Source: an uncultured Rhodobacteraceae bacterium
Lineage (GTDB): Bacteria > Pseudomonadota > Alphaproteobacteria > Rhodobacterales > Rhodobacteraceae
Direction: 5' to 3'
Length of the DNA stretch: 64,000 bases
Assembly (NCBI GenBank): GCA_937883775.1
Contig: CAKZXZ010000178.1
Span: 22,223 to 86,222, forward strand
Shown: piece after piece, positions 799-23,104 of the stretch
Layout: each line of letters starts with the position of its first letter
Position numbering within the stretch: the first letter of the stretch is position 1
Made by a program: the position numbers and the translations under genes
Notes under the pieces: generated by a model
The model's database searches: none
What the model saw: the letters and a program-made list of their open reading frames with translations, nothing else
What the model was told of the DNA's origin: nothing

Positions 799-2066
799 CA
801 TTGGCGAATTTGTCCTGGGAAACCTTCGTCCGCCTTCAGCAGGTTCTGGAACATGCGTGTGCCGGTCGACATTTCATCATCCGCATAGGCGTAGTCTGGG
901 AAGTTGTATTCGCTGATGAAATCGCTGAGGCGGAAAAACGACCCCTTGCGGAACGACACAAGCTCCATCGCGCCTGTGTCTAGATCGCGGCGCAGCGCTA
1001 GCAAAAATTGCCCATCTTGGTCTGCTATGTGGACAACGCCGGACAAAGGCAGCGGAACGGTTTGCACCCCGGACGTCGCACCCAGATAAGGAACAGGTTC
1101 AGAGAGCCCCGGTCCAGCAGCCGCACTGGTCAGGTTTTCCATTGAGATCAGATCAGCGTCCATTTCCCGATTGACGACAAGCACATAGCTGGACACTTCG
1201 CCCTGAAAATTGGCCGCTTGGAAGGAGATAACATCCAGCGGTGTGTTACCATAGCCAAGCTCTGCGATGGTCTTGCCTGTCACGTGGGCACCGTCCTCCA
1301 ATGCATCCACTGGGATGGTGACCAGGGGGGTACAAGTATATGCCGCGACCGCCGTGGCCGTACCGTCAATGTCGACCACTGCCATCGCACGGATTGGCGC
1401 GCGTGTTTCGTTCTGATTGTGGGCTGCGTGATAGATCTCAATGCTTGTGGATGTCGACGCATCAGCAAAGGGATACGGTACTCGGCGCAGCGTCGATGCG
1501 AATTCGCCTGTTGAGACGCCTGAGACAAACAGCTCACCATTTGCGAAATCCAGATCCGTGATTGTCAAAGACGGTGCCGGGATGTCGCGCCAAAACGTAA
1601 CGCTGGCGTCCGCAGGGGCATCCAACATGAACTTTGTTGACGGCATTTCCTCAAGATCGAGAACACGTGCGGTGCCGTCCCGCGAAACGGCAACCACTGC
1701 GCCCACGTCCGCGCTGTCAGCTGTCGCCGTCACAGAGGCATAGGCTTCTCGCGTTACGGGATGCACAGCCAAGTCGCTGTAGACGAGCCGCCCCGTCGCA
1801 CCTAACGCATCCGCTACGAGCTGATCCACATCTAGTAGATTGAATGCAGCATCCTGTTCAGGAGCGGTGCCGTCCGCAGGAAGCGTGTAAGCATGGATCG
1901 CGCCAGCGGTAGAGTCCGCGACAAACAACGTGTTGTCGGGGCCAAATTCCAAAATCCCAAAGGATTGCGGCATGTCGGCGGCTGCAGATCCTGTAGACAG
2001 GGCAATGGCGCCAAGGACTGCAAGTGGTTTGAGTGCGGTCATATGTTGTTTCCTTTGATGGATCAT
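798..2066 (-). CDS. secreted hypothetical protein (beta-rich, no recognised domain)
   Basis: 422-aa ORF. The true start is probably the internal M of MTALKPLAVLGAIALSTGSAAA (about 2042), which reads as a signal peptide. Coupled to the downstream gene at 798. Confidence 0.6.
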   Translation of the reverse strand: MIHQRKQHMTALKPLAVLGAIALSTGSAAADMPQSFGILEFGPDNTLFVADSTAGAIHAYTLPADGTAPEQDAAFNLLDVDQLVADALGATGRLVYSDLAVHPVTREAYASVTATADSADVGAVVAVSRDGTARVLDLEEMPSTKFMLDAPADASVTFWRDIPAPSLTITDLDFANGELFVSGVSTGEFASTLRRVPYPFADASTSTSIEIYHAAHNQNETRAPIRAMAVVDIDGTATAVAAYTCTPLVTIPVDALEDGAHVTGKTIAELGYGNTPLDVISFQAANFQGEVSSYVLVVNREMDADLISMENLTSAAAGPGLSEPVPYLGATSGVQTVPLPLSGVVHIADQDGQFLLALRRDLDTGAMELVSFRKGSFFRLSDFISEYNFPDYAYADDEMSTGTRMFQNLLKADEGFPGQIRQ

Positions 2067-2120
2067 CAGGTAACGCAGAATTTCGGTTGCTATAGGTTGA
2101 GGCGTGTGGCGTTTGTGGGA

Positions 2121-2492
2121 TCAAGCAGAGCCAAAGTGGGCGAGGATTGTTCGGATGCGCTTGCGGTCAAGCCATATCAACACGGCACACAACGCCGCTA
2201 GAACCAGCGCGGGTACCGCAGAGGGGCCGATGACAAACACGTGGAAAAGCGCCCCACAGATCATCGTAGCAAACAAGAGGCCTGCGCCAACGACTTGCAT
2301 GTCCTGGACCCACAGCAATGCAGCCGATCCGATTTCCACCACCGCAGTGACATAGCGAAACCATTGGCCCCAACCTATCGCTTCAAAGGTCTCAACCATC
2401 ATTGCAACGCCAAAAAGCTTGGCGCTGCCTGCCGCCAGAAAAACTATTGAGAGCAATACTCGCAGCGCTAACGACGCGTAAAACATTTTCAT
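2121..2492 (-). CDS. DoxX family membrane protein
   Basis: MKMFYASLALRVLLSIVFLAAGSAKLFG... with four hydrophobic helices typical of DoxX. Start placed at the internal ATG (2492) because the long ORF would overlap the upstream gene. Confidence 0.75.
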   Translation of the reverse strand: MKMFYASLALRVLLSIVFLAAGSAKLFGVAMMVETFEAIGWGQWFRYVTAVVEIGSAALLWVQDMQVVGAGLLFATMICGALFHVFVIGPSAVPALVLAALCAVLIWLDRKRIRTILAHFGSA

Positions 2493-2556
2493 TCCGTTCT
2501 TGTGAAACCGACTGGTTTGAGGTTCGCCCGCATTTCGAAAAAAGCGGGCAAAAGGC

Positions 2557-4467
2557 TTAGTAGCTTTGAGGATCAAGGGGGTCGGTGGCCGCTTCTTTTT
2601 CGGCCATATCGTCTATGCCATCCCCGTCAGAGTCCGCCTTGTAGGGGAAAGTGCCACCGGCCAATTCCGTCGCGTTGTCCATTCCATCGCCATCGATGTC
2701 GCTGTCGAGCGCGTCTTCAATGCCGTCGCGATCTGTATCCGCCCACCGGCTCGGGTCATCTGGGAAGCCGTCGAAATGATCTTCGACACCGTCACCGTCG
2801 GTATCGATGGCAGGTGGTGTGAATACGCCGTTCCATTCCGATGCAGCATCCGGAACCTTTCCGGTGTTTATCTCAGAAAATAGCAAACTCGCCAGTTCGC
2901 TCATATGATAAGGCCGCTGTTCGCTGGGAAGACCAAGGTGCACACCGGGCTTCCAACCAAGGGGGCCGAGGGTTCGAAGAGTCCAGGACATGCTGAGTTG
3001 GTCTGTCACGACAGCGACGGACTGCATGGAGCCGGAGAGCCAGGAGGTCACCACAGGGATCGCGATAATCTCTTGCACCTGACGGTCCGAATAGTGGCGC
3101 CTCAGTTCTTCGATATGGGCGGCGGTGACCCGCGTCGGTAAACGTCCGGCATCTCGCACAAACCGCATTGCGGCCTTAAGGCCTGGTTCATCGGCCAGAA
3201 ATTCGGAGCGTTCGAAATCCATGAGCGACCTAATGTACGCGATGAGAGGCGCTTTTTCTTCCTCGGGGATTTCTGCCCTGAAGTTGTCTGCTTCGGTGTA
3301 GTCCCAGATGCCGAAGGCGCCGTGGGCCTGACAGTGAACACATCCGGAGGCGAGCTGGTATACGAAGAAGAGCGACCAGATCTCGGGGAAGTCCATCGAG
3401 CGTTCTCTTTGGAGGAGATACTCGTCCATAGCCAAGGTGCCAAAGGCAGCGCCGCGGTCCCAGAACGTGTCGAACATATTGCGGGCGCTGTAAGGTACAG
3501 TCGATGTCACTTCTGGCGGACCGGTGTAGTAGTCGTAGTCATAGGCTGCCACGTCAAAGGCAGGTGTGCTTTCCGACGGGAGGTTGGCCGCAACTGCTTC
3601 GTCAGCCTGCCACTTCAAGAGTGTACTTGGGAAAGCGTCAAAAGGCTGTTCTATCCCGTCGCCATCCCCATCGAATGTGACGATGGGCACATCATAACCG
3701 GTCACGAAATTGAGCCAATCTGTCTCAAGAACTGGATCTACAGCGCCGTAGTCATCCCGCACCCAAGACGCGTCGATCTCAGCGACGAAGCTAGTCAGCG
3801 CTTCTCCTACGAAGGGATTTGCGCGCTGTTCTGTGTCGGAGCTCGGTGCATTGTGGCCGATCTCCCATCCGACTGACGAAAGGTTCTTAGTTGCCCAATC
3901 CACGGTCTCTTGGTCGGTAACGATCGGCAAGACGGCGTCATGGGTCGCCGATGCGTGGTTGATTGCCCCCAGTTGCATCAATTCGGCAATCGCTCGGTCG
4001 GTGTAGTTCCTGCGCAAGAGCGCATGGACATCGGCTGAGGATGTAATGGGGTATCGACCCATGACATCGATATAGGTGAAGGCCGCTTTCAGGCGCGGGT
4101 CGTCCAGCTTGTCGACGTAGTCCGGGTCAAAGACTGCCTGGATATCCTGCAGAGGCACGTCCATGAGCGAGAGCTGGTAGGCGCTGCGCGCCGTGTGGTG
4201 CCAGCTTTCTGATAGGAGCATCTGGCGCAGCGTCAGCATCCATTTTGTGGTGCTGTCGAAGAAGGCGTCGCGATGGATCATCGCATCGGCTGTCATGAGA
4301 CCCTCGTAGAAGTCCCGCAGATTGCTGATGTCGATCTTGTCGCGGTCGTAAAATGGCATCGCAGTGTCCGATGCAGGCGGCGCGGGCGCGACATCGGCGA
4401 GAGCAAAGGAAGACGCGAGCGTCACGGTCAAAATTGCCGTGCTCGTCAAGAAGGGTTTGAGGCGCAT
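2557..4467 (-). CDS. secreted protein: two AhpD/carboxymuconolactone-decarboxylase-like domains plus thrombospondin type-3 (Ca-binding) repeats
   Basis: Start at MRLKPFLTSTAILTVTLASSFALA (signal peptide). The second CMD-like region has ASGCVHCQAHG (CxxC..H). C-terminus is DTDGDGVEDHFDGFPDD..DTDRDGIEDALDSDIDGDGMDN..DSDGDGIDD, plus an internal FDGDGDGIEQPFD. Confidence 0.65.
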   Translation of the reverse strand: MRLKPFLTSTAILTVTLASSFALADVAPAPPASDTAMPFYDRDKIDISNLRDFYEGLMTADAMIHRDAFFDSTTKWMLTLRQMLLSESWHHTARSAYQLSLMDVPLQDIQAVFDPDYVDKLDDPRLKAAFTYIDVMGRYPITSSADVHALLRRNYTDRAIAELMQLGAINHASATHDAVLPIVTDQETVDWATKNLSSVGWEIGHNAPSSDTEQRANPFVGEALTSFVAEIDASWVRDDYGAVDPVLETDWLNFVTGYDVPIVTFDGDGDGIEQPFDAFPSTLLKWQADEAVAANLPSESTPAFDVAAYDYDYYTGPPEVTSTVPYSARNMFDTFWDRGAAFGTLAMDEYLLQRERSMDFPEIWSLFFVYQLASGCVHCQAHGAFGIWDYTEADNFRAEIPEEEKAPLIAYIRSLMDFERSEFLADEPGLKAAMRFVRDAGRLPTRVTAAHIEELRRHYSDRQVQEIIAIPVVTSWLSGSMQSVAVVTDQLSMSWTLRTLGPLGWKPGVHLGLPSEQRPYHMSELASLLFSEINTGKVPDAASEWNGVFTPPAIDTDGDGVEDHFDGFPDDPSRWADTDRDGIEDALDSDIDGDGMDNATELAGGTFPYKADSDGDGIDDMAEKEAATDPLDPQSY

Positions 4468-4480
4468 GGACAGGGTCTCC

Positions 4481-5077
4481 TTATTTGGCGAGCAGGAACA
4501 TCGTGTTCGGATTTGGCGAATGGGACGGCACGTTCTGGAGGACGTCCCAGTGCTCTTCCAAGAGCCCGGTCTTTGCATCAAATCGGTACATATCGACCGC
4601 TGCGATGCCGAGATCACGGGGGTCGTCGTGATCTAGGTTGCGGAAATTCACATGGGCAAAAGCATAATTGCCCGAGACAATGATCCGGTGGATGTCGATG
4701 GAGATATCACGTTCTTCGACCGATCCGCCAAAGAGCGCCGCCAAGGGCGCCCGGCCATTCGGCAGAAAAATGCTGTGTTGGATGTACTCATCCGAGATGT
4801 AGGGCGCGAGGTTCTCGTTCGTGGCGCCGGCCTCGAAAATCTCATAGATATCGATCACGCGTTGCACGATCTCGAGCTCTGCCTCGGTTTCGGCAAGTAT
4901 GTGAGTCTCAAAATTCGTGGGAACCGTGTTTTGATAGATCGCGCCCTGCTCCCAAGCTCGGGTGGGCGGTGCGAACGGATTACTGTCTTGGGCAAAGGCT
5001 GGTGCGGCCGAGACCAGCATAAGCGTCGTAAGGGCGGCACATGACATTTGGGATGGACTTAGTCTTGTGAGCAGCAT
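4481..5077 (-). CDS. secreted SnoaL-like / NTF2-fold protein
   Basis: Start at ATG 5077 with an AGGAGA SD. Signal peptide MLLTRLSPSQMSCAALTTLMLVSAAPAFA. Core YISDEYIQHS...GNYAFAHVNF...EHWDVLQ is typical of the SnoaL-like COG4922 family. Confidence 0.7.
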   Translation of the reverse strand: MLLTRLSPSQMSCAALTTLMLVSAAPAFAQDSNPFAPPTRAWEQGAIYQNTVPTNFETHILAETEAELEIVQRVIDIYEIFEAGATNENLAPYISDEYIQHSIFLPNGRAPLAALFGGSVEERDISIDIHRIIVSGNYAFAHVNFRNLDHDDPRDLGIAAVDMYRFDAKTGLLEEHWDVLQNVPSHSPNPNTMFLLAK

Positions 5078-5206
5078 CTTGTTCTCCTGACTTGGCAAAA
5101 GGCAAAGCGGTACCTGCGAAACCGACTGCTGTGTCGGTTTCCTGGTAGGGCGGCATTTGAGTTTGAAGGCGTGTCGACCTTTGCGGCCGACCATCAGATT
5201 TGAGGT

Positions 5207-6343
5207 TTAGTTCTTGGCGGGGAACTGATAGTTGACCGGATGCCAGAACACGGTGTTGGGCCTGTTCTTATGTCCGTTTTCAAACAGCTCTCGCGCTAGA
5301 TCGGCGACCATGTGCGGGTCCTCCGCGTGCAGAAAGTGGTTGGCACCCACAAGGGCAACACGCGCATCTGGAAGAATGTCGGCGGAGGTCATGTATTCCT
5401 CCGGTTTCTGGCCAGGGTCATGCGTGCCTTGGATAAAAAGCACAGGCATGGTCATTTCCTTGATCACATGCTCCATGCGAAACTCCAACTCGATGTCAAA
5501 GCTTGTCCCCTGGAACGTCCGTGCGGCCGCCTCTGGTATGCCTGGAAAGCTAAACTCCCAGTCAAGGCGTCTTAGAAAACGCTCGGGAAAATGCACTGAC
5601 CCATAATTGCTGTTGTAAGCGGTGCTTGCGAGATTTTCCTGGCTCTGGAATTGGACCGAAGCCATCGCTTCATGGGGAGGGCGGGGCAACCCATGGGGCT
5701 GGTCGAAGGATTGCTGCATCCGCACCCAAGCGGATACGCGCGCGCTGATGCCTGCATTCGTCAACAGCTTTTCGCTGACAATGCTCCCGCGATCATGGCT
5801 GATCAGGTTGAACTCGGAGACACCAATCTTTTCCAACAGCGTCACCAAGCTGGCGGCGGCTCCGGCATAACTCACGTCAATCTCAGGGCCCTTGTCCGAT
5901 TGTCCATAGCCCAAGACGTCCACCGCAATGACGTAGTAATCATCCGCCAACAGGGCCATCACTTCGGCATTGGCCCACCAGGTGTCCGGATAGCCATGGA
6001 CCATCAAGACGACATCGTCTGACGGATCGCCCGCCGTCACAAAGTGCCAAACGGGGCCGTCGGCATCTACGAACCAATGGGTGCCAAAGACGCCCATGCC
6101 CAGGTATTCAACCTCGCCGTGGTGGCTGACTTTGACTGTCTTTGGAGCCGCCTCGGGATAGCGTTCCACATCTTCTGAGATTCTTGCGAGAGGATACGGC
6201 TGATAGGAAAACTCTTCCCACGCGGGAAAGGCATCCTCCGCTGCGGCGGCTCCTGTGTGAACGATGCCTGCGATCATGAACACAGCGGTGCTCTTGATAA
6301 CGCGCGTTATAACGCGCGTTGAAAATTTGCTGGGTCTGATCAT
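5207..6343 (-). CDS. secreted alpha/beta hydrolase (epoxide hydrolase / haloalkane dehalogenase-like)
   Basis: HGYPDTWW oxyanion motif and SHDRGS (Asp nucleophile elbow). Hydrophobic N-terminal leader ending AAAAED. An alternative upstream start lies at 6385. Confidence 0.75.
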   Translation of the reverse strand: MIRPSKFSTRVITRVIKSTAVFMIAGIVHTGAAAAEDAFPAWEEFSYQPYPLARISEDVERYPEAAPKTVKVSHHGEVEYLGMGVFGTHWFVDADGPVWHFVTAGDPSDDVVLMVHGYPDTWWANAEVMALLADDYYVIAVDVLGYGQSDKGPEIDVSYAGAAASLVTLLEKIGVSEFNLISHDRGSIVSEKLLTNAGISARVSAWVRMQQSFDQPHGLPRPPHEAMASVQFQSQENLASTAYNSNYGSVHFPERFLRRLDWEFSFPGIPEAAARTFQGTSFDIELEFRMEHVIKEMTMPVLFIQGTHDPGQKPEEYMTSADILPDARVALVGANHFLHAEDPHMVADLARELFENGHKNRPNTVFWHPVNYQFPAKN

Positions 6344-6426
6344 AGCAAATCCTTGACTTACTGCGGTTGCGGCCAATGTAGTCAATTGCTTGTGTATTGC
6401 TCAAATTGATATTTTTAATATTGATC

Positions 6427-7338
6427 ATGGACATGAGAAATGTACGCGCGGCCGATCTGAACCTACTCCTAGTTTTTGAGGCCATCATGGCCGAGAGGAG
6501 TGTGACACGCGCTGGCGAACGAATTGGGCTTACCCAGCCCTCAATGAGCAACGCGCTGTCACGTCTTCGCGCCCTTTTTGGTGATGAGCTTTTTGTTCGG
6601 ACTCCCGAGGGCATGATCCCGACCCCCGTAGCGCTGCAGGCGTCCGAACACGTCAAGGCATCAATCTTTGCCGCGGAAGAGGCGCTGTCTGTTAACGGCG
6701 CGCTTTTTGCGCCACAAAACGCCGAAGGCACCATCACTCTCCTGACGAACGACCTGATCGAGTTTACGATTCTACCAGCAATCGTCAAAGCTCTTGCTCA
6801 GGAAGCACCAAAACTACGATTGCGCACGCGGCCCCTTCTGAAGGAAGCTTTCGAGCACGACCTCGACGCTGGCCTTGCCGATTTTGCCATTGCAGCACCT
6901 GCCAACGTACCAAAGCGGTTCGACTTCTATGACCTCTTTGACGAAGCGTTCGACGGAATAGCCCGCTTCGGGCACCCGATCCTTTCCGCAGCAATAACAC
7001 AAGAAACGTTCTTTTCGTTTAGACACGTTACCGTCTGCCATCGGTTCGGAGCCACCGGGGTCATCGAGTCGGCCCTAAGCGATATAGATAAGAAATTAGA
7101 CATTGCCGTAAGCGTGTCTAACCTCGCCTCGGTGCCGCCTTTAGTGTCAATGACTGATTTCATTTCTGTGGTTCCGAGGCGCCTTGCCGAAATCGGAACA
7201 AAAGAAGGACTGGTCGCTAAATTTGATTTGCCTTTGGAGGTACCGTCCATTCAGGCAAAACTTATTTGGGGCCGCGGCGCGGCGCGCTCACCGTTGTCAC
7301 TGTGGTTCAGAGATCTTATGGAGATGGTCGTGCGCTAA
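6427..7338 (+). CDS. LysR-family transcriptional regulator
   Basis: N-terminal HTH LNLLLVFEAIMAERSVTRAGERIGLTQPSMSNALSRLR. Divergent from the hydrolase gene. Confidence 0.85.
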   Translation: MDMRNVRAADLNLLLVFEAIMAERSVTRAGERIGLTQPSMSNALSRLRALFGDELFVRTPEGMIPTPVALQASEHVKASIFAAEEALSVNGALFAPQNAEGTITLLTNDLIEFTILPAIVKALAQEAPKLRLRTRPLLKEAFEHDLDAGLADFAIAAPANVPKRFDFYDLFDEAFDGIARFGHPILSAAITQETFFSFRHVTVCHRFGATGVIESALSDIDKKLDIAVSVSNLASVPPLVSMTDFISVVPRRLAEIGTKEGLVAKFDLPLEVPSIQAKLIWGRGAARSPLSLWFRDLMEMVVR

Positions 7339-7532
7339 GACTAGGCTCAGCTTCGCTTCATTGAGTTTGCCATCTCAAAATGGCTCAACTGTCAAATATA
7401 AAAGCCGATAGCATATTCGCTAAAAAACTACGGCGGGGCAAATGTGCATATATGAGCTCCCTTTAGTAATCATAACATCCAGTTCATGGCAGCTTCCTTA
7501 GGCTGTACCTCAACATTTGAGAACGATGTGCT

Positions 7533-7865
7533 CTACCGCTGTTTTGAGCCGTCACAACGAATATGAAAGGCGGCTTTTGGTGCATAGACGGACGCATGTC
7601 CGAAGGCGTAGATGACCAGGGCGGGCAGACCAATCCACAAGATCATCTGCACTGGCACAAATGGCAGCGCAGCAGTACCAGCGCCGACAAAGACAAGACC
7701 GACAAGCAACACGCTACGCTCCCCAAATGCCTTTGCCAGTGGCCCGATGGCGGCTTGTACCGCTGCCGTAGCGACCTTAATCAGCGTGAAGACATAGCCG
7801 ATCTGGACGGCGGTGAGGCCGAAGCGATCTCTAATTTGTCCTGAAAATCCTCGCTGCCCGGCGAA
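7533..7865 (-). pseudogene. C-terminal fragment of an MFS transporter
   Basis: Only ..GFSGQIRDRFGLTAVQIGYVFTLIKVATAAVQAAIGPLAKAFGERSVLLVGLVFVGAGTAALPFVPVQ.. looks MFS-like (a DRFG loop plus about 3 TM helices). The upstream part of the 192-aa ORF is not transporter-like. Confidence 0.45.
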
Positions 7866-8462
7866 CGAATGACAGCAATCCCTGCCGCCACGCAGCGCCC
7901 TGTACCGAGCATCTGCGGCGATTGCCGTGCTGCGAGCGCACGCAGCGAGAAATCGCGATGGCCGGGTTGGGCTCGCTACTGCCATTCGCTCAACCCATTG
8001 GCGCGGATCGCAAGCCTGGCCGGTCCCATCGGTGAGGATCAAGTGCAGCACAAAGACGCCATGCGGGCACGCCCATTTACAAGTGATCGCTGAAACCTCT
8101 CCGCCTACCACGATGCAGCATCACCAAATGGAGCGAAGCGGGTTGAGGCTCGAATACGAGCATTCGGCATGGAAAGTCTGATCCCGTTCGAGGGCCTGGA
8201 TCGAGCGCAGGACATATCGAACGCTAACAAGACTCGTCGGGAGGAAGCATTCTCGCATTGTCGGGAATGCTTGACGACGACCCCGCTCTGCGCCTTCCGC
8301 ACGCCCGAGCCTGTCTTTCTCCGATCGACATTGCCAGTGGATTGCCCGGGCCGACTGTAGCGGTCATCTCTCGTTCCGTGCCCTCGTCACCCGCATCCGT
8401 CACGGCCTCTCATTGGGCTGATCTGACCGGGATCGGCTGGCGCCTCGACCGCCTCAGCCGCA

Positions 8463-8549
8463 ACGCCGGGTTCGGACTTTCTTCCCCTGGGCTTCGCCCA
8501 TTCCTCGCGGGACGACCCTTAAGGGTCCAAGAAAGTCCGCCCCCGGCGT
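8463..8549. repeat. 87-nt nested inverted repeat (long interrupted stem plus inner 14-bp palindrome)
   Basis: ACGCCGGG (8463-8470) pairs with CCCGGCGT (8542-8549). GGACTTTCTT (8474-8483) pairs with AAGAAAGTCC (8529-8538). The inner perfect palindrome GACCCTTAAGGGTC lies at 8514-8527. About 110 nt upstream of the DUF736 gene. Confidence 0.6.
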
Positions 8550-8658
8550 CCTCCGCTGGCGCTTCGGGCCAAGGGCTGCGTCGGCGGATCGTCCCTGTCC
8601 TGACGATCGCCATCGAGACCGCGACGGGCGCGGGATCGAAAGCCAAAGGAGAAATGAC

Positions 8659-8994
8659 ATGGCCACCATCGGAACCTTCAAGAAGACCGGCAACGAATAC
8701 GTCGGAGAAATCGTCACCCTCAACGTGCAGGCGCAGAACGTCCGCATCGTTCCCGAGGACAGCACCTCCGGCGAGAACGCTCCCTCCCACCGGGTCTTCG
8801 TCGGCCGCGCCGAAATCGGCGCCGCCTGGTCCAAGACCTCGAACGAGAGCCGCGACTATCTGAGCCTCAAGCTGGACGATCCGAGCTTCACCCAGCCGAT
8901 CTACGCCAACCTCTTCGATGACACCGTCGTCGAAGGCGGCGAAGAGACCTTCAGCCTCATCTGGTCCCGGGCGCGCCGCAAGAACGGCGACTGA
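8659..8994 (+). CDS. DUF736 domain protein
   Basis: MATIGTFKKTGNEYVGEIVTLNVQAQNVRIVPE...APSHRVFVGRAEIGAAWSKTS...DYLSLKLDDPSF is the hallmark DUF736 sequence of alphaproteobacterial ICEs and plasmids. Confidence 0.85.
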   Translation: MATIGTFKKTGNEYVGEIVTLNVQAQNVRIVPEDSTSGENAPSHRVFVGRAEIGAAWSKTSNESRDYLSLKLDDPSFTQPIYANLFDDTVVEGGEETFSLIWSRARRKNGD

Positions 8995-9006
8995 GTCCGC
9001 GACTTC

Positions 9007-9034
9007 AGCCCCGTCCGGGAGACCGGGCGGGGCT
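9007..9034 (+). terminator. GC-rich hairpin downstream of DUF736 gene
   Basis: AGCCCCGTCCGG-GAGA-CCGGGCGGGGCT forms a 12-bp stem with one G:U. No clear U-tail follows. Confidence 0.35.
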
Positions 9035-9124
9035 TACGCGCGCTTCGAACTTGAACCAAAGCCGACGCCGACGCCGACTTCGTAACGAAGTACACGGCAC
9101 GGTGCCGTGTGATATACCTTCGCT

Positions 9125-9748
9125 ATGATGATCTCGGATATCGAAGACTACTTCGCAAAAGGCTGCGGGCGGTGCGCACGCTTCAATACCCCTGACTGCT
9201 CCACGAAGACCTGGGAAAAAGGTCTGTCAAAGCTGCGGAATATCTGTCTCCAGACAGACTTGGTGGAGACGGTCGAATGGGGCCATCCCTGCTACATGCA
9301 CGCAGACCGCAACATCGTTATTGTCGGAGCGCTGAAAGACAATTTCCGTCTCAGCTTCTTCAACGCGGCACTCATGAAAGACCCGAACGGCATCCTTGAA
9401 AAGCAGGGGCCGAACACCCAGCAACCGGACATGATCCGCTTCATGTCTAATGACGGACCTGCGGAGAAGGAAAAAGCTATCCTCGCTTATCTGGAGGAAG
9501 CGAAGTCCTACGCCGAAGCTGGAAAGAAACCCCCAAAGGACGACGGCGCTCTCGATCTTCCCGAAGAGCTTGTCGAAGCGCTTGATGCGGACCCAGAGCT
9601 ATCGGAGGCGTTCCACGCCCTGACGCGCGGGCGGCAGAAAAGCTACGTAATCAATCTCAACGGTGCAAAGAAACCGGAGACGAGAATGAACCGCATCGAG
9701 AAGTTTCGGGACAAGATTATCGACGGCAAAGGGGCGACCGAACGGTAA
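9125..9748 (+). CDS. YdeI/OmpD-associated (DUF1801-type) protein
   Basis: CGRCARF..C..K Zn-ribbon-like N-terminus and a C-terminal ...LTRGRQKSYVINLNGAKKPETRMNRIEKFRDKI. GC is visibly lower than the flanks. Confidence 0.7.
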   Translation: MMISDIEDYFAKGCGRCARFNTPDCSTKTWEKGLSKLRNICLQTDLVETVEWGHPCYMHADRNIVIVGALKDNFRLSFFNAALMKDPNGILEKQGPNTQQPDMIRFMSNDGPAEKEKAILAYLEEAKSYAEAGKKPPKDDGALDLPEELVEALDADPELSEAFHALTRGRQKSYVINLNGAKKPETRMNRIEKFRDKIIDGKGATER

Positions 9749-9815
9749 AGGCTGACGTCCGGCGAGCGGCAGGGTCGTGCTGCAAAGCGGTCGAACGTGC
9801 AATTTCAAGCGAACT

Positions 9816-10034
9816 CTAATCCGATACGTTTTCTTCCAACAGAGCAGCTGGCTGTACATCCAGTGCCTGCGCCACATGCCAGAGCGTGACGATCGTGACG
9901 TTCTGCTGTCCGCGCTCCATCGCGCTCACATGCGCGCGGTCGATGCCCATTTTCACCGCGAGCGCAGCCTGGCTCATGTTCGCTTGGGTCCGATAATGCT
10001 TGAGATTGTTACCAAATGTGTGACGGATATCCAT
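9816..10034 (-). CDS. XRE-family HTH regulator (QseC/controller-protein-like)
   Basis: FGNNLKHYRTQANMSQAALAVKMGIDRAHVSAMERGQQNVTIVTLWHVAQAL. Alternative ATG at 10046. Divergent from the small DUF2285 gene. Confidence 0.75.
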   Translation of the reverse strand: MDIRHTFGNNLKHYRTQANMSQAALAVKMGIDRAHVSAMERGQQNVTIVTLWHVAQALDVQPAALLEENVSD

Positions 10035-10050
10035 CCGCCAACACATGCCT

Positions 10051-10087
10051 ATCGCGTATTTTAGTGCGACGCGCTATAATACGCGGT
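10051..10087. promoter_or_regulatory. 37-bp imperfect palindrome (candidate operator) with -10-like hexamers on both strands
   Basis: CGCGTATT (10053-10060) and AATACGCG (10078-10085) flank TAGTGCG-AC-GCGCTA. TATAAT lies on the plus strand at 10075-10080. TAAAAT lies on the minus strand (10063-10058), only about 12 nt before ATG 10046. Confidence 0.5.
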
Positions 10088-10209
10088 CGTGCTCGTTCAA
10101 GCATCGTCTGACAGCAGAAAATCGACCGTTCAACTGTCGGATGCTTGCCAGCGAGGCCGCGAATGAGGCATTAACCATTCTTGCCTAGGAACGCGTTGGG
10201 GGGACACAA

Positions 10210-10473
10210 ATGACAGAAAAAGTTGCCGCAAACTTTGCCGATGTTCCCCCAGAAAACGACTTCGTGACTGACTATGATCGCCAGCATTTGAAGCTCTATG
10301 CGCGGCTCCTCGACGCCGAAGCGGACGGCGCGCCCCTTGCCGACATCGTCAAGATCCTGTTCGGAATCGACGCCGAGAATGAGCCGGAACGCGCACGCAG
10401 ATTGCATGCTGGACATCTCGGGCGCGCCCATTGGATGGCCGAAAACGGCTACCGCAACCTCATCGCTGGCTGA
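10210..10473 (+). CDS. small DUF2285-like protein (QseM-like putative antiactivator)
   Basis: 87 aa. LYARLLDAEADGAPLADIVKILFGIDAENEPERARRLHAGHLGRAHWMAENGYRNL parallels the C-terminal DUF2285 region of the next gene (ALRTDDARRSGAALRDIATVYFG...ARLARYGEHLTSTGYRQIL). Confidence 0.6.
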   Translation: MTEKVAANFADVPPENDFVTDYDRQHLKLYARLLDAEADGAPLADIVKILFGIDAENEPERARRLHAGHLGRAHWMAENGYRNLIAG

Positions 10474-10485
10474 CCAAAACATGTT

Positions 10486-10511
10486 CGATGCGTGATGCGT
10501 TTCACGCATCG
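10486..10511 (+). promoter_or_regulatory. perfect 10-bp inverted repeat, 6-nt spacer
   Basis: CGATGCGTGA-TGCGTT-TCACGCATCG, 13 nt after the stop of the QseM-like gene and 100 nt before the FseA-like ATG. Confidence 0.35.
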
Positions 10512-10610
10512 CTCTATGCCTTTGATCCCACTACGCATTCCCGCAAAACGGGAGAATACTTCCGGGTTACCGGTCGCTATCACGCGCCGGACTATCGTGG
10601 GAGTGCAATC

Positions 10611-11343
10611 ATGCCTGGTAACTGGCGCAATGAATCCGACTACGATTACTTCGACACACTCGATCTTGGCGGCCTCGCCTGGGAATGCTTGAGACGCAAT
10701 GCGCGCTACCGCGCTGCATATCCGGCGATGTCCAGGCGCCGCGCGCTGACATGGGGGTTGCGATTTCCCTGTCGATCCAGAGCGCGACGCGACCAGCGCG
10801 ACGGTGCTCTGGACGCCCGCGGCGGCTCCGGCAGTCGCGACCGTCATCACCGAGCCTCCGGCCGAAGCACGCACCGACAGTGCCGTCCTGCGCAGCGGAT
10901 CTGCCCTCCCAGATAAATCGAGCCAGGACGGATGGCAGGTGCTGGTTGGCGGCATCGTCGCGGTCTCGACAGCCTCCGAAGACACCGATCACGCCATCGC
11001 AATTGTCATCCCGGTCGACGATGACTGGCACGTCCGGCTCAAAGCCGCTCAGCACTTGCGCGACATCCTGATCTGTAAACAACCAAAAAGGCGGCTCACG
11101 CAGCAACGCCGAACGCGCATCGCGCGAGCGCTTCGGACCGATGATGCGCGGCGATCCGGGGCCGCCTTACGCGACATCGCAACCGTCTATTTCGGGCAGG
11201 TTCGCGTCGCCGAGGAGCCGTGGAAAACAAGTGCCCTTAAAGCGCAAACAGCGCGTCTCGCCCGCTATGGCGAGCACCTGACCAGCACCGGGTATCGGCA
11301 AATCCTGCGCGGTGAGACTGCGAGCCGACCGCGCCTTCGCTGA
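10611..11343 (+). CDS. FseA-like activator (N-terminal DUF6499-type plus C-terminal DUF2285), needs a +1 frame change near 10767-10771
   Basis: Frame 0 from ATG 10611 (GGGAG SD) reads MPGNWRNESDYDYFDTLDLGGLAWECLRRNARYRAAYPAMSRRRALTWGLRFP. The +1 frame from 10771 reads VDPERDATSATVLWTPAAAP...RALRTDDARRSGAALRDIATVYFG...GYRQILRGE and stops at 11343. Confidence 0.6.
10764..10773 (+). other. putative +1 frameshift site TTT CCC T GTC
   Basis: The 0-frame reads TTT CCC TGT CGA. The +1 frame reads (CCC)T GTC GAT CCA GAG. The +1 frame is open only from 10750, after TGA 10747-10749. The 0-frame continues with Arg/Ser-rich nonsense to 10916. Confidence 0.5.
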
Positions 11344-11507
11344 CATCATCTTCTCGTTTTCCCTGCGCATCTCACATCACTTCAATGGGGGTGACGATTT
11401 CTTACCGAAATCTTCGTCATCCCTCCCGGGCGCTCTTCTCCGCTTCTCTGGCCGCGAGCCGTCCCTCGCATCCCGCGACGGACCCGCGATGACCAGAGGA
11501 GCCCCCG

Positions 11508-11792
11508 ATGCCCGATCCCAATGCCGGCCTGCCGCCGCGCTATCTCAGAACCCCCGAAGCCGCCCGCTTTCTCGGCCTGTCCGGTCGCACGCTGGAGAAG
11601 CACCGCACCTACGGCACTGGCCCAAAGTATTCCAAGATCGGCGGACGTGTCGTTTACGCGGTCGATGATTTGCAAGCCTGGGTCGGCCGCGGCGAGAAAC
11701 ACTCGACCTCGGACGACACCGGCGACACCGTGCTTCCCGCCAAACGGCATGCCGCCATTTCGCCAGCCTATAGTGGCGAGAAGCGCTCATGA
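11508..11792 (+). CDS. excisionase-family HTH protein (RdfS-like recombination directionality factor)
   Basis: RYLRTPEAARFLGLSGRTLEKHRTYGTGPKYSKIGGRVVYAVDDLQAWV is a MerR/excisionase-type HTH. First gene of the traF-relaxase cluster; ATGA overlap with the next gene. Confidence 0.7.
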   Translation: MPDPNAGLPPRYLRTPEAARFLGLSGRTLEKHRTYGTGPKYSKIGGRVVYAVDDLQAWVGRGEKHSTSDDTGDTVLPAKRHAAISPAYSGEKRS

Positions 11793-12253
11793 GGGGGCGC
11801 ACGACCATCGAACTCACGTGGATCGAAGGCCGCATCGAGCGCTGGCTGCGCTTCGGTCGCATTGTTCAGGAGACGATTCTGAGCCGGTCCGTCCGGGTCG
11901 TCGGTGTCGATTCCAGCAGCATATTTGCCTTCGTCCGTTGGGCCGCGAACGACTACGGCACGGTCGAGAGCCGCATCGACATTCTGCAAGCCGTCCGCCC
12001 CGGCGACCGCTATTCGACGGTGCCGTTTGTCACGCCCGGTGGCGCATCGCTTTTGCGGCTTTCTGGCTGGACGAAGGTCGAGGCTGTGCTGCTCGCCATC
12101 GACCAGATCGAGGCCGAAAACATCGCACCGGAGGACGTCTGTCCCGACCACTGGCGGCACGTCCACAACCGCATCAGCTGCAATCTCGAGCCGCGTCCTT
12201 ACACGCCTTTCCGGCATGACGCTTGGCTCAAACGTCGGGCGCTGGCGGCATGA
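11789..12253 (+). CDS. DUF2840 domain protein
   Basis: ELTWIEGRIERWLRFG...FAFVRWAANDYGTVESRIDILQAVRPG...PDHWRHVHNRI are conserved DUF2840 motifs. Confidence 0.75.
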   Translation: MRGRTTIELTWIEGRIERWLRFGRIVQETILSRSVRVVGVDSSSIFAFVRWAANDYGTVESRIDILQAVRPGDRYSTVPFVTPGGASLLRLSGWTKVEAVLLAIDQIEAENIAPEDVCPDHWRHVHNRISCNLEPRPYTPFRHDAWLKRRALAA

Positions 12254-12762
12254 AACGCGCGCGCGCCTCGCTTCTCATCGGCAGCGCCGGTATCGCCTTG
12301 ATCGCGTTCTCCGCGATCGTCCGCGCCAACCCGATCTTGGTCTGGAACGCATCCGCCAGCGTGCCGATCGGCTTCTACGCCGTGCAGCCGCTCGACGGGC
12401 CAAGTGTTGGCGATCTCGTTGTCTTAGAGCCGCCGTTACCGCTCGGCGACTGGCTCCTGGAGCACGGCTACCTCGGTGCCGACGTGCCGCTCATCAAACA
12501 CGTCGCCGCACTTCCCGGACAGCGTGTCTGCCGTGTCGGCGTCACGGTCAGCATCGACGGCGAGACCGTCGCGACCGCAAAAGAGCGCGACCGCTTCGAC
12601 CGTCCACTGCCCGTCTGGCAGGGCTGCCTACGGCTCACCGACGACCAGATATTCTTCCTCAATCCCGACACCGGGGCGAGCCTCGACGGACGGTATTTCG
12701 AGCCGCTGCCGCGCAAAACGATCATTGGCCGCGCCGTCCCGATCTGGATACGGGAGGGCTGA
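12250..12762 (+). CDS. traF: conjugative transfer signal peptidase TraF (S26 family)
   Basis: Start at the ATGA overlap (12250). TM leader, then LVWNASASVPIGFY...KHVAALPGQRV...LNPDTGASLDGRYFEPLP. Confidence 0.85.
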   Translation: MKRARASLLIGSAGIALIAFSAIVRANPILVWNASASVPIGFYAVQPLDGPSVGDLVVLEPPLPLGDWLLEHGYLGADVPLIKHVAALPGQRVCRVGVTVSIDGETVATAKERDRFDRPLPVWQGCLRLTDDQIFFLNPDTGASLDGRYFEPLPRKTIIGRAVPIWIREG

Positions 12763-13763: not shown

Positions 13764-15509
13764 ATGAGCGGGCGCGAGAATGACATCCGCATCAAGCCCG
13801 GGCGCATTCGCGACAAAGGTCCATCGGCCAAGCGCGCGCAAAGCTTCGTCGGTCAGGTTATGCAGGCCTCCCGGAAGGCGGGACATACCGGCTATCGCTT
13901 CAACGGACCCAAGGGCAGCTCGCGCTTCTGGCGCGGGAAATTCGTCCGTACTGCACGGGGCCTGTCCAATGCGAGGCGGCGTGTTGTCGTCAAGGCCCGA
14001 GTAGTCAGACATCGCGGCCAGAAGTTCCGGTCCGCACCACTCGCCAAGCATCTCGACTATCTGAAGCGGGAGGGCGTCACCAGGGACGGCCGGGATGCGG
14101 CCATGTTCGACAAGGAGCTTGAACAGGTCGACGACCGCGCCTTCGCCGCCAGCACCGAAGACGACCGGCATCACTTCCGCTTCATCGTCTCGCCGGAAGA
14201 CGCCGGGCAGATGGAAGACCTGCGCGCCTTCATCCGCGACCTCATAGCTCAGGCCGAGCGCGATCTCGGCACCGAACTCGAATGGGTCGCAGTCGATCAT
14301 TGGAACACCGACAATCCGCATGTCCATGTGCTGGTGCGCGGCAAGGCGGATGACGGGAAAGACCTCGTCATCTCGCGCGACTATATCAGCTGCGGTCTGC
14401 GCGCACGCGCCGAAGAGCTCGTCGAGCTCGAACTCGGACCGCGCAGCGAGAAGGAGATCGCCACCGGACTCGATGCAGAGGTGAAGGCCGAGCGCTGGAC
14501 GGGTCTGGATCGGGCCTTGCGGTCCTATGCCGATGACACGCTCGGTGTCGCCGACTTGCGGCCCGGCGCGCCCGACCTCGACGACAAAGAGCTGAAGCGT
14601 CGAATGATCGGGCGTGCGCAGACCTTGGAACGGTTCGGCCTTGCCGAAAAGCTCGTGCCGTCTGTCTGGCAGCTGAAACCGGGAATGGAAGACACTCTGC
14701 GCGAGATGGCCACGCGCGGCGATATCATCAAAACGATGCATCGGGCGATGGGCGGCCACACCCGCGCGCCATCCGACTTCGCCATTGAGGGACAGCCGGA
14801 AAGCCCGATCCTCGGCAAGCTCGTCGATCGCGGGCTACACAACGAACTCTCCGGCGAGGCCTACGCAATCATCGACGGCGTCGATGGGCGCCTCCATCAC
14901 CTGCGCTTCCGCGATCTCGATCTCACCGGCGATACGCCGGTCGGCGGGATCGTCGAGACGCGGAGCTGGGCCGGGAAGGATGGAGGAGCGCGACGCTTGG
15001 CTTTGGTCGGGCGGTCGGACATCTCGCTCGACAAACAGGTGGATGCGGATGGTGCGACCTGGGTCGATCGATTGGCGCTCGCCAAGACACACGCGCCGCT
15101 GGCGCAGAGCGGGTTCGGAGCCGAGGTCCGCGACGCTTTGGAGAAGCGTGCAGAGCATCTGGTCGGCCAGGGTCTCGCGACGCACCGAGGTCAGCGCGTC
15201 ACCTTCGCGCGCGATCTCCTGCAAGCGCTGCGCCAGCGCGATCTCGATAGAGCTGCAAGCAAGATCGCAGACGATACTGGACTGCCATTCCGAAAGTCCG
15301 GAGACGGCGAGACCGTGGCTGGCACTTACCGCCAACGCCACGACCTCGCCTCGGGACGTTTCGCCATGATCGATGACGGCATGGGCTTCGAACTCGTGCC
15401 CTGGAAACCCCAGCTCGAAAAGCATCTCGGCCAGACCGTCTCGGGAACGGTCACGGCGGGCGGTGGCATCGACTGGTCGCTCGGCCGCAAGCGCGGCCTC
15501 TCGATCTGA
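13764..15509 (+). CDS. relaxase/mobilisation nuclease with DUF3363 (RlxS-like)
   Basis: IRIKPGRIRDKG...HWNTDNPHVHVLVRG is the His-triad of MOB relaxases. 581 aa. Confidence 0.85.
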   Translation: MSGRENDIRIKPGRIRDKGPSAKRAQSFVGQVMQASRKAGHTGYRFNGPKGSSRFWRGKFVRTARGLSNARRRVVVKARVVRHRGQKFRSAPLAKHLDYLKREGVTRDGRDAAMFDKELEQVDDRAFAASTEDDRHHFRFIVSPEDAGQMEDLRAFIRDLIAQAERDLGTELEWVAVDHWNTDNPHVHVLVRGKADDGKDLVISRDYISCGLRARAEELVELELGPRSEKEIATGLDAEVKAERWTGLDRALRSYADDTLGVADLRPGAPDLDDKELKRRMIGRAQTLERFGLAEKLVPSVWQLKPGMEDTLREMATRGDIIKTMHRAMGGHTRAPSDFAIEGQPESPILGKLVDRGLHNELSGEAYAIIDGVDGRLHHLRFRDLDLTGDTPVGGIVETRSWAGKDGGARRLALVGRSDISLDKQVDADGATWVDRLALAKTHAPLAQSGFGAEVRDALEKRAEHLVGQGLATHRGQRVTFARDLLQALRQRDLDRAASKIADDTGLPFRKSGDGETVAGTYRQRHDLASGRFAMIDDGMGFELVPWKPQLEKHLGQTVSGTVTAGGGIDWSLGRKRGLSI

Positions 15510-15524
15510 GCACCGGAGCATTTG

Positions 15525-17519
15525 ATGACCTCGAAGAAACACGCATCGCCCGCCACCGCCATCCTCTGGGGCCAGATCTTCATCGTCTCGACGGTCGCGC
15601 TGCTCTTCGTCTGGGCGGCGACGCAATGGGTAGCGTTCCGGCTCGGCTTCCAATCCGAGCTCGGCGAGCCGATGACGACAATCCTCGGTCTACCGATCTA
15701 CGCGCCTTGGAATGTCTTCGTCTGGTGGTACTGGTACGACGCTTATGCCCCGCGCGTCTTCATGGAAGGCGCGATCATCGCCGGCGCGGGTGGCATCGCT
15801 TCTGTTGGCGTCGCGATCTTTCTCTCCGTCCTGCGCGCCCGCGAAGCGAGCAATGTCACGACCTATGGCTCCGCCCGGTGGGGCACCGAGAAGGATATAC
15901 GCGACGCCGGATTGTTCGTGAACGATGGTGTCGTGCTCGGGCGCTACCAGTCCCGCTATCTCCGCCACGACGGACCCGAGCACGTGCTGTGCTTCGCCCC
16001 GACGCGCTCGGGCAAGGGCGTCGGGTTAGTGGTCCCGTCGCTCCTGACCTGGCCGGGCTCCGCCATCGTCCACGACATCAAGGGCGAGAACTGGCAGCTC
16101 ACGGCGAACTATCGTTCGCGCTTCAGCCGCGTGCTGCTCTTCGATCCGACCGATCCGACCTCGGCCGCCTACAATCCGCTGCTCGAAGTGCGCCGGGGCG
16201 ACAGCGAAGTGCGCGACGTCCAGAACGTTGCCGACATCCTGGTCGATCCCGAAGGCCTACTCGAACGACGGAACCATTGGGAGAAGACGAGCCACTCGCT
16301 GCTGGTCGGTGCGATCCTGCACGTCCTCTACGCCGAGGCCGACAAGACGCTGGCTGGTGTCGCGGCCTTTCTCTCCGATCCGAAGCGTTCGATCGAGTCG
16401 ACATTGGCGGCGATGATGCGCACGCCGCATATCGGCGATCACCCGCATCCCGTCGTCGCGCAGGCCGCGCGCGAGCTTCTGAACAAGTCCGAGAACGAAC
16501 GATCGGGAGTCCTTTCCACCGCGATGAGTTTCCTCGGGCTCTATCGCGATCCGGTCGTGGCCAAAGTCACGCGCCGCTGCGATTGGCGGATCGATGATCT
16601 GGCGACAGGCGACAGACCAGTAACGCTCTATCTCGTGGTGCCGCCGTCCGACATCTCGCGGACCAAGCCGCTTATCCGGCTCGTGCTCAATCAAATCGGC
16701 CGCCGTCTCACCGAGGACCTGCACGCGAAGCGCAGCCACCGCATGCTGCTCATGCTCGACGAGTTCCCGGCGCTCGGACGCCTCGACTTCTTCGAGAGCC
16801 AGCTGGCCTTCATGGCCGGCTATGGGATCAAAGCATTCCTGATCGCGCAATCGCTCAACCACATCGAGAAGGCCTACGGGCAGAACAATGCCATCCTCGA
16901 CAATTGCCATGTGCGCATCGCCTTCGCGACGAATGACGAGCGCACCGCGAAGCGGGTGTCCGACGCGCTCGGCACGGCAACCGAGATGCGGGCGATGAAG
17001 AACTATGCCGGTCATCGGCTCTCGCCCTGGCTGGGGCATCTTATGGTCTCGCGGCAAGAGACGGCGCGACCGTTGCTGACACCCGGCGAGATGATGCAGC
17101 TTCCGCCGACGGACGAGATTGTACTCGTCTCAGGCGCACCGCCGGTCCGCGCGGAGAAGGCGCGCTACTACACCGATCCACAGTTCAAAGCACGGATTGG
17201 TCCTCCGCCGCATCATAATGCGCAAGCCGGAGTGGTCGGCAGCATGACGGACGATTGGAGCCACCGCGGACCTATCGCCGCGCCCCCGCCCAAAAAACGG
17301 AAGGGATCGAGCGACGATGCCGATGGCGGCATCCGGCGGCAACCCGATCTCCCGGAACATGAAGACATCGCGCCCGAACCCGCTCCGGCACGGAGCGAGT
17401 TTGCCGATCTCGACGACGAACCGGACGATGATGCACAACGCCCAAAGGCCATGCGCGACCGGTTCGGCACGGTCGCGCGGCAGGCCTCGCTCGATCCCGA
17501 TGACGGGATCGAGCTCTAG
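15525..17519 (+). CDS. traG: type IV coupling protein TraG (VirD4 family)
   Basis: Two N-terminal TM helices. Walker A FAPTRSGKGVGLVVPS. LMLDEFPALGR (Walker B). 664 aa from ATG 15525. Confidence 0.9.
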   Translation: MTSKKHASPATAILWGQIFIVSTVALLFVWAATQWVAFRLGFQSELGEPMTTILGLPIYAPWNVFVWWYWYDAYAPRVFMEGAIIAGAGGIASVGVAIFLSVLRAREASNVTTYGSARWGTEKDIRDAGLFVNDGVVLGRYQSRYLRHDGPEHVLCFAPTRSGKGVGLVVPSLLTWPGSAIVHDIKGENWQLTANYRSRFSRVLLFDPTDPTSAAYNPLLEVRRGDSEVRDVQNVADILVDPEGLLERRNHWEKTSHSLLVGAILHVLYAEADKTLAGVAAFLSDPKRSIESTLAAMMRTPHIGDHPHPVVAQAARELLNKSENERSGVLSTAMSFLGLYRDPVVAKVTRRCDWRIDDLATGDRPVTLYLVVPPSDISRTKPLIRLVLNQIGRRLTEDLHAKRSHRMLLMLDEFPALGRLDFFESQLAFMAGYGIKAFLIAQSLNHIEKAYGQNNAILDNCHVRIAFATNDERTAKRVSDALGTATEMRAMKNYAGHRLSPWLGHLMVSRQETARPLLTPGEMMQLPPTDEIVLVSGAPPVRAEKARYYTDPQFKARIGPPPHHNAQAGVVGSMTDDWSHRGPIAAPPPKKRKGSSDDADGGIRRQPDLPEHEDIAPEPAPARSEFADLDDEPDDDAQRPKAMRDRFGTVARQASLDPDDGIEL

Positions 17520-22772: not shown

Positions 22773-23104
22773 CCACTAGGCTCAATCTCCTCTATCCCCG
22801 CTGGCCCATCTATGTCAGCGCCGCCGCGATCGGCTTTCTGTTGGCCGCCGGACAGGCCGAGGCCGCAGGGTCCGGCATGCCTTGGGAAGCGCCGCTTCAG
22901 GCGATCTTGGAGTCGATCGAAGGGCCGGTTGCCAAGATCGTCGCGGTCATGATCATCATCATCACCGGCCTGACGCTTGCGTTTGGCGACACCTCGGGTG
23001 GCGCGCGTCGGCTTGTCCAGATTGTGTTCGGCCTGTCGATCGCCTTCGCCGCATCGAGCTTCTTCCTGTCCTTCTTCTCCTTCGGCGGCGGCGCACTGGT
23101 ATGA
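22769..23104 (+). CDS. trbC: TrbC/VirB2 pilin
   Basis: ATGA overlap with trbB. Signal peptide plus two TM helices: MPWEAPLQAILESIEGPVAKIVAVMIIIITGLTLAFG. Confidence 0.85.
   Translation: MTTRLNLLYPRWPIYVSAAAIGFLLAAGQAEAAGSGMPWEAPLQAILESIEGPVAKIVAVMIIIITGLTLAFGDTSGGARRLVQIVFGLSIAFAASSFFLSFFSFGGGALV

Follow-up and report, generated by a model that had tools for sequence, protein, structure and literature searches.

A split fseA-type activator gene with a probable +1 programmed frameshift in a conjugative element of an uncultured Rhodobacteraceae bacterium

When the two conserved domains of an activator are encoded in two overlapping reading frames, is the locus one gene that is read through by programmed ribosomal frameshifting, a pair of genes whose products work together, or a gene broken by mutation or assembly? 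This question is raised by positions 10611-11343 of a 64,000-nt stretch of contig CAKZXZ010000178.1 (positions 22,223 to 86,222, forward strand; GenBank assembly GCA_937883775.1) from an uncultured Rhodobacteraceae bacterium. The whole stretch is referred to as the window, and all coordinates are those of the window. A preliminary description of the locus had proposed an FseA-like activator for an integrative and conjugative element (ICE) made by a programmed +1 frameshift. The protein domains, the ICE context and a conserved cassette at the junction agree with this proposal, the frameshifting itself by homology, and we consider it very probable that the locus encodes an FseA-type activator produced by a +1 programmed frameshift of tRNA-Phe at UUU-C and controlling an ICE transfer module. 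Membership in the FseA family is supported by the domain architecture, by the resemblance of the surrounding module to that of ICEMlSymR7A and by a +1 offset at the conserved cassette in 80/80 relatives.

Translation of frame 0 from ATG 10611, with GGGAG located 8 nt upstream, gives a product that reads MPGNW...LAWECLRRNARYR...LTWGLRFPCRSRARR... and stops at TAA 10914-10916. Residues 4-53 of this product matched the Pfam family PF20109 (DUF6499; cutoff 23.8 bits, scores in Table 1), as expected from the earlier assignment of a DUF6499 N-terminus to this frame. The AWECLRRN motif of fseA is found at aa 23-30 (nt 10677-10700); its W, E, L, R, R, and N do not vary among 74 unique relatives, all of which have Cys in place of Phe. 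A stop at TGA 10747-10749 closes the +1 frame, which from 10750 stays open as far as TGA 11341-11343, and its product, HGGCDFPVDPERDA...GYRQILRGETASRPRLR, matched PF10074 (DUF2285/RovC_DNA-bd; cutoff 26.4 bits). The match and the frame coordinates bear out the statement that the remainder of the protein is readable solely in the +1 frame opening at 10750. From 10750 to the junction this frame contains no ATG, GTG or TTG, and its earliest start is GTG 10804. Frame 0 past the join had been dismissed as Arg/Ser-rich junk, and it is indeed an unconserved tail of 49 codons, the corresponding tails of relatives beyond the slip site ranging from 2 to 113 codons. The junction DNA reads TGG GGG TTG CGA TTT CCC TGT C (10752-10773). 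A conceptual join of the two frames yields a protein of 243 aa in which both Pfam domains are present, and the C-terminal 113 aa of this joined FseA have a pI of 11.4 and a net charge of +14, in line with the basic, extended-turn helix-turn-helix type of DUF2285 domain that characterizes the family.

Relatives were obtained by scanning one genome per species with a search that was seeded on the C-terminal motif and was thus blind to the frame state. The scan returned 80 loci with 37-92% protein identity to the window locus. Those whose record gives a taxon are all alphaproteobacterial, and the loci are mostly marine. Counts out of 81 refer to these 80 relatives and the window, and codon counts to the 74 unique joined genes. 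For 80/80 loci, matching of the N-terminal half runs up to ...WGLRF, and that of the C-terminal half sets in 1 nt further on, in the +1 frame; by tblastn, residue 52 is the last one matched by the N-terminal part in 81/81 sequences. Close relatives consisting of single ORFs with one base fewer, the alternative outcome considered in the preliminary description, were not encountered, all 80 relatives being split alike. In a protein search the nearest database entries were 179-aa 'DUF2285' ORFs, which represent the same split called from GTG, and a few distant homologues were full-length. The single-ORF homologue P0012 has TGG GGC TTA CGT GTC in place of the junction and is hence without the cassette. 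A further single-ORF homologue of 218 aa (locus L085, protein P0009) lacks the entire WGLRF-PVDP junction segment. Its source is a contig of 854 nt with ~1.5x coverage, and it is either a natural in-frame deletion fusing both frames or an assembly artefact.

The 16-nt cassette TGGGGGTTGCGATTTC has one exact match within the window. The cassette of the relatives, TGGGGGTTRCGATTTY, is invariant or nearly so, with TGG GGG TTR CGA TTT in essentially all loci; CGA and TTT occur in all 81 sequences and the G tract in 79-81 of them, and TTT is followed by C in 79 and by T in 2. At the level of codons, the synonymous sites of the cassette are frozen (G49 as GGG in 70/72, R51 as CGA in 74/74, and F52 as TTT in 74/74), whereas other invariant Arg, Gly, and Phe columns of the same genes use 2-6 codons (R28 all six, G21 all four, F66 TTC in 45 and TTT in 2). 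Since codons are frozen at the cassette and free elsewhere, selection is acting on the RNA rather than on the protein. Among the window genes, CGA accounts for 6.9% of Arg codons, TTT for 24.6% of Phe codons, and CCC for 27.7% of Pro codons, CGA and TTT thus counting as rare in this genome. The coding phase switches right after TTT-C, and from the first codon onward it is the third positions of the +1 phase that vary: P53 is encoded by CCG (39), CCC (10), CCT (9), and CCA (6), and P56 by CCN. The cassette also agrees with the published features of the msi172 site, namely UUUC with a G-rich region upstream (PMC4755241) and UGGGGG coding for WG(L) (PMC10359603).

The position of the join and the identity of the slipping tRNA are where the preliminary description needs revision. 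It had placed the join at CCC(10767-10769)/T/GTC and attributed it to peptidyl-tRNA-Pro moving from CCC (10767-10769) to CCU (10768-10770). This would be the same +1 frameshift with the same product, and both candidate joins encode the identical peptide ...WGLRF-PVDPER..., so that the protein prediction is unaffected and protein alignment of the window locus cannot discriminate between them. CCC-U permits re-pairing, CCC-N is a known +1-prone sequence, and CCC follows TTT in most relatives. The evidence from the family, however, places the join one codon earlier, at TTT(10764-10766)/C(10767)/CCT(10768-10770). In 17/81 loci the codon after TTT is CGC (8), CCT followed by T or G (7), or TCC (2), and as a Pro slip is impossible in these loci it is not the conserved mechanism. 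UUU followed by C permits re-pairing of tRNA-Phe from UUU to UUC, and a pyrimidine follows TTT in 81/81, a Phe slip being possible in every locus. The UUU-CCC-U heptad is conserved in its TTT-pyrimidine part, and the next codon differs in the 17 loci mentioned. The base after CCC is G (44), T (20), C (10), or A (7) and behaves as a free wobble position of the +1 frame. Distant plasmid homologues retain TTT-C though the flanking codons differ, as in pMLb of Mesorhizobium japonicum (TGG GGT TTG CAG TTT C/GCC) and in a plasmid of Agrobacterium vitis (CAG TTT TTT C/GTC), and pAtK224b of A. tumefaciens carries the cassette of the window. The mechanism published for msi172 is likewise a tRNA-Phe slip from UUU to UUC on a slippery UUUC with a conserved upstream G-rich region, at an efficiency of 4-13% (PMC4755241). 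Based on these comparisons, the slip conserved in the family is supported as that of tRNA-Phe from UUU to UUC (10764-10767), and a slip of tRNA-Pro is unlikely.

Alternatively, the two frames could be expressed with no frameshift, as two proteins that cooperate in trans, one with DUF6499 starting at ATG 10611 and one of 179 aa with DUF2285 starting at GTG 10804. Database annotation agrees with such a pair, both in the 179-aa DUF2285 proteins that are the nearest homologues and in plasmid records with separate coding sequences (CDS), and the DUF6499 and DUF2285 domains touch each other in the published FseA model (PMC10359603). Several observations make this explanation highly improbable. Upstream of GTG 10804, the +1-frame segment PVDPERDATSAT (10768-10803) is conserved as amino acids with synonymous variation, P56 being invariant in 74/74 with the use of four codons and A63 being present in 73/74. 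No possible +1-frame start exists upstream of the conserved PVDP segment in 56/81 loci, and the first downstream start is found 1 to 63 codons past the junction at an unconserved position, so that the conserved protein cannot arise by independent initiation. Two separate proteins would also leave the invariant CGA-TTT-C without a reason, single-chain relatives exist (RovC and P0012), and in the case of msi172/msi171 it is the fused protein that acts as activator (PMC4755241, PMC10359603).

Slippage of RNA polymerase on the G5 or T3C3 tract, giving an mRNA fraction with one base fewer or two more, is hardly credible for the window locus. Short homopolymer runs do flank the join, and a low-yield fused protein would look alike, but productive transcriptional slippage normally requires longer A or T runs, and the conserved rare CGA and UUU-pyrimidine suit re-pairing of a tRNA. 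The authors of the msi172 study also assigned ribosomal frameshifting (PMC4755241). That the split stems from misassembly by 1 nt, or from an indel that recently turned the gene into a pseudogene, is effectively refuted. One extra base within a short stretch rich in C and T is typical of error or mutation, and the low-coverage contig encodes a variant without the junction segment (P0009). Against this, the same extra base is found in the same codon in 80 independent assemblies of 37-92% protein identity, the cassette is near-invariant at synonymous sites, both halves are intact and under purifying selection, and the identical sequence occurs on public contigs, the longest of ~99 kb.

Some observations fit less well with a tRNA-Phe frameshift in fseA and have to be weighed against it. 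The 0-frame A-site codon is CCC, which is neither rare nor a stop codon and is not obviously starved as in prfB. The G tract is situated 6 nt upstream of UUU rather than 3 nt as in prfB, and because of this spacing its stimulatory role is unproven. A conserved RNA structure downstream of the site was not found when the 70 nt past the site were folded for 58 distinct relative sequences. For the joined protein, AlphaFold gave a model of only moderate confidence overall (pLDDT 63.6) that is poor around the junction; over residues ~160-230 of this model the pLDDT is 81-94. In favour of the join, RovC (PDB 6xz5) has in one chain matches to the N-terminal motif as well as to the C-terminal domain of the joined product. 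RovC was also the top Foldseek match of the joined model, with a poor TM-score, which is weak support. We also considered a downstream RNA stimulator as a family feature and rejected it; the fold of 10740-10860 has z = -1.35, and the relatives share no structure. Locally, a strong hairpin with a 10-bp stem (UCCAGAGCGC...GUGCUCUGGA) is formed by 10776-10813, beginning 10 nt past the slip codon; it is present only in the window and in the 91%-identical L001 and is not conserved in the family.

According to the favoured tRNA-Phe frameshift, translation would begin at ATG 10611 and proceed through the DUF6499 domain. Most ribosomes would continue unshifted to TAA 10916 and release a 101-aa DUF6499-only protein. 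A minority, by homology a few per cent, would slip +1 with peptidyl-tRNA-Phe from UUU (10764-10766) onto UUC (10765-10767) and read CCU GUC GAU... as far as TGA 11343, giving a 243-aa FseA predicted to consist of DUF6499, a middle domain, and a DUF2285 helix-turn-helix. Full-length FseA may then bind the 6+16+6 inverted repeat at 11389-11422 and activate the rdfS-DUF2840-traF-transglycosylase operon, upon which the element would be excised and transferred by conjugation. The QseM homologue encoded upstream (10210-10473) would block activation by sequestering the DUF6499 domain of FseA, and would itself be controlled by the divergent qseC-like repressor. The frameshift would thus serve as a translational throttle that holds the level of the activator low.

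The genes assigned to this system and the associated sequence features are summarized in Table 1.

Table 1. Features of the fseA locus and of the surrounding transfer module (positions in the window).
Feature	Position	Strand	Basis or remark
Frame-0 ORF (Msi172-like, unshifted), 101 aa	10611..10916	+	DUF6499 domain and 49-codon unconserved Arg/Ser-rich tail
fseA part 1, frame-0 codons 1-52, last codon the slip TTT	10611..10766	+	PF20109, 53.5 bits
fseA part 2, +1-frame codons 53-243 and stop; middle domain and DUF2285 DNA-binding domain	10768..11343	+	PF10074, 85.6 bits
Putative +1 frameshift cassette TGG GGG TTG CGA TTT C	10752..10767	+	G-rich Shine-Dalgarno-like tract, rare UUG and CGA, slippery UUU, skipped C
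qseC-like XRE-family helix-turn-helix regulator	9816..10046	-	Pfam HTH_3, 48 bits; divergent from the qseM-like gene
QseM homologue, 87-aa DUF2285-only protein, putative FseA antiactivator	10210..10473	+	PF10074, 29.1 bits (cutoff 26.4)
Candidate FseA box, inverted repeat GGGTGACGA-N16-TCGTCATCC	11389..11422		89 nt upstream of the rdfS-like ATG
rdfS-like excisionase (recombination directionality factor), presumed FseA target operon	11508..11792	+	Pfam HTH_17
DUF2840 gene	11789-12253	+	Pfam
S26 peptidase TraF gene	12223-12762	+	Pfam
SLT lytic transglycosylase gene	probable start ATG 12767, end 13516	+	Pfam; internal ATG located
Relaxase (DUF3363/MobA-VirD2)	13764-15509	+	Pfam
TraG/VirD4 coupling protein	15522-17519	+	Pfam
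trbB, trbC, trbE, trbL, VirB8-like, CagX-like, and TrbI genes (trb type IV secretion operon)	21789-31173		

The relaxase and the TraG/VirD4 coupling protein mark the element as conjugative. The gene set agrees with the surroundings typical of FseA-family genes, which are placed on ICEs or other conjugative elements beside homologues of rdfS, traF, msi107, and rlxS. The QseM homologue matched PDB 7UQT, 'Quorum sensing master protein', over 76 residues (E=2e-17), and is acidic, with a pI of 5.2 and a net charge of -5. It is encoded upstream of fseA in 78/81 loci, and the qseC-like homologue occupies the same relative position in 77/81. The DUF2840, traF, and transglycosylase genes are syntenic in 67-71 loci, and the gene order is kept in 67-78/81. 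Judged from gene content and synteny, the window appears to hold an FseA/QseM/QseC-type transfer switch in complete form, carried by a conjugative element of an uncultured, marine-type alphaproteobacterium. Among the loci holding the full gene, the RdfS-like excisionase is 87-98% identical where FseA is only 37-63% identical, a conservation that is unusually strong for a small ICE protein. Neither an autoinducer synthase nor a LuxR domain (luxI/luxR, traI/traR) was detected among the Pfam-scanned long ORFs around fseA. No integrase was identified in the window, and att sites were not searched for. Other parts of the window (1-9800 and 17500-64000) contain apparent cargo genes, including a hydrolase, LysR regulators, an MFS transporter, aldehyde and alcohol dehydrogenases, an OYE flavin oxidoreductase, and LtrA. 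A DUF736 gene is found at 8659-8994, and the G+C content dips at 18-20 kb of the window. A tRNA-Arg(CCG) at 56914-56990 on the minus strand adjoins suf/cysteine desulfurase housekeeping genes and could mark a boundary of the element.

The candidate FseA box upstream of the rdfS-like gene was found in 73/81 loci (<=2 mismatches), always with a spacer of 16 nt of variable sequence. The published FseA box consists of two inverted hexamers 16 bp apart adjoining the rdfS promoter, the same spacing as in the window repeat; the two are likened by spacing and position. For the family in general, the hexamers of the box are described as 15-16 bp apart. The cassette TGGGGGTTGCGATTTC is identical in 14/16 positions to the left arm of this FseA-box-like repeat (TGGGGGTGACGATTTC, 11386-11401), and a third similar 16-mer is found at 8707-8722 on the minus strand, within the DUF736 coding sequence, so that three cassette-like 16-mers (<=2 mismatches) are observed in the window against ~0.04 expected. 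Binding of FseA to its own frameshift site was considered as an explanation and rejected. The similarity is probably coincidental, as no matching right arm is present 16 nt downstream of the cassette and the third copy of the 16-mer is coding sequence of the DUF736 gene; in published electrophoretic mobility shift assays, moreover, excess fseA gene DNA was no competitor for FseA binding, which argues against FseA binding to fseA DNA.

Two further palindromes are located in the intergenic regions of the module. The stretch from the qseM-like stop to the fseA start holds a perfect palindrome of 10 bp, CGATGCGTGA-N6-TCACGCATCG, at 10486-10511. In the related loci a sequence of the form YGATGC-N7-GCATCR, fixed ~120 nt upstream of the fseA ATG, was found in 50/79 cases, compared with 2.3% of random 200-nt windows. 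Since its arms are conserved and its spacer varies, it looks like a protein operator and not an RNA hairpin, and this upstream palindrome may be the regulatory input of fseA in place of a TraR tra box. In the qseC-like/qseM-like intergenic region, a palindrome with 16-nt arms, CGCGTATTTTAGTGCG and CGCGCTATAATACGCG, separated by 1 nt, extends over 10053-10085 and is a candidate operator of the QseC-like XRE repressor. A sigma-70 promoter scan of 9700-11800 found no promoter.

Taken jointly, these features allow a more specific suggestion, which we put forward tentatively and regard as rather doubtful. In this clade of ICEs, which occurs mostly in marine alphaproteobacteria, the frameshift signal might be an extended one of 16 nt, UGGGGGUURCGAUUUC, in which the invariant rare CGA in the E site (I-A wobble) could stimulate the slip, and fseA might be wired to a regulator that binds YGATGC-N7-GCATCR and not to quorum sensing. 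If true, the window would contain a regulatory variant of the FseA switch and not a copy of the Mesorhizobium one.

The main value of the locus is in annotation: it is best recorded as one fseA CDS with a putative +1 programmed frameshift at 10766/10768. Public records instead list a 179-aa 'DUF2285 protein' from a spurious GTG together with a DUF6499 ORF that is unannotated or over-long. The annotation of the family is inconsistent also among plasmids, pMLb and the A. vitis plasmid having separate 'DUF6499' and 'DUF2285' CDS and pAtK224b listing none at the locus. The view of the preliminary description that the split is a regulatory device rather than decay agrees with the identical split in 80/80 relatives and with the conserved cassette. 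This conclusion is not new, as conservation of the frameshift across proteobacteria is already published (PMC10359603); the window locus is a correct and ordinary example of it and opens no new question in that respect.

The closest described system is FseA of ICEMlSymR7A (msi172/msi171; Mesorhizobium japonicum/loti R7A), from which the differences are modest. Both share the DUF6499 and DUF2285 architecture, two overlapping ORFs with a +1 join at WGL-x-F coded by UGGGG...UUUC, genes for a QseM-type antiactivator and a qseC-like repressor in the vicinity, and inverted hexamers 16 bp apart before rdfS, with rdfS, traF, transglycosylase, and relaxase genes downstream. The proteins themselves are distant, the C-terminal part alone of the window FseA having <40% identity to homologues from Mesorhizobium, Bradyrhizobium, Sinorhizobium, and the A. 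vitis plasmid. The codon preceding UUU is an invariant CGA in the clade of the window, whereas the plasmid copies from Mesorhizobium and A. vitis have CAG there. The DUF6499 motif is AWECLRRN in the window clade, as in RovC, and AWEFLRRN in FseA of R7A, where Phe34 was described in a pocket contacted by DUF2285/QseM (PMC10359603). In the window qseM is placed directly upstream of fseA on the same strand, whereas in R7A it is convergent with the traI2-msi172-msi171 operon (PMC4755241). Unlike R7A, the window has a conserved palindrome ~120 nt upstream of fseA and no luxI/luxR among the scanned ORFs nearby, and the distance from the box to the rdfS ATG is 89 nt compared with 62-67 nt in the published logo.

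RovC of Yersinia (PDB 6xz5) is the sole full-length relative with a solved structure and combines AWECLRRN and DUF2285 in one chain, like the joined FseA. It differs in being a chromosomal single ORF with no frameshift, in activating type VI secretion and not ICE transfer, and in sharing only ~15% identity. With prfB, the gene of release factor 2, the window site would have in common re-pairing of the P-site tRNA in the +1 direction on a NUU-Y codon, a G-rich Shine-Dalgarno-like element upstream, and control of dosage. In prfB, however, the A site holds a UGA stop codon, the Shine-Dalgarno element is 3 nt upstream and the shift serves autoregulation of the release factor, a logic that does not apply to the window site, which has the sense codon CCC and a G tract at 6 nt. 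Among 4,709 FseA homologues from alpha-, beta-, and gammaproteobacteria, ~61% were found to be split at the conserved site (NAR 2023; PMC10359603).

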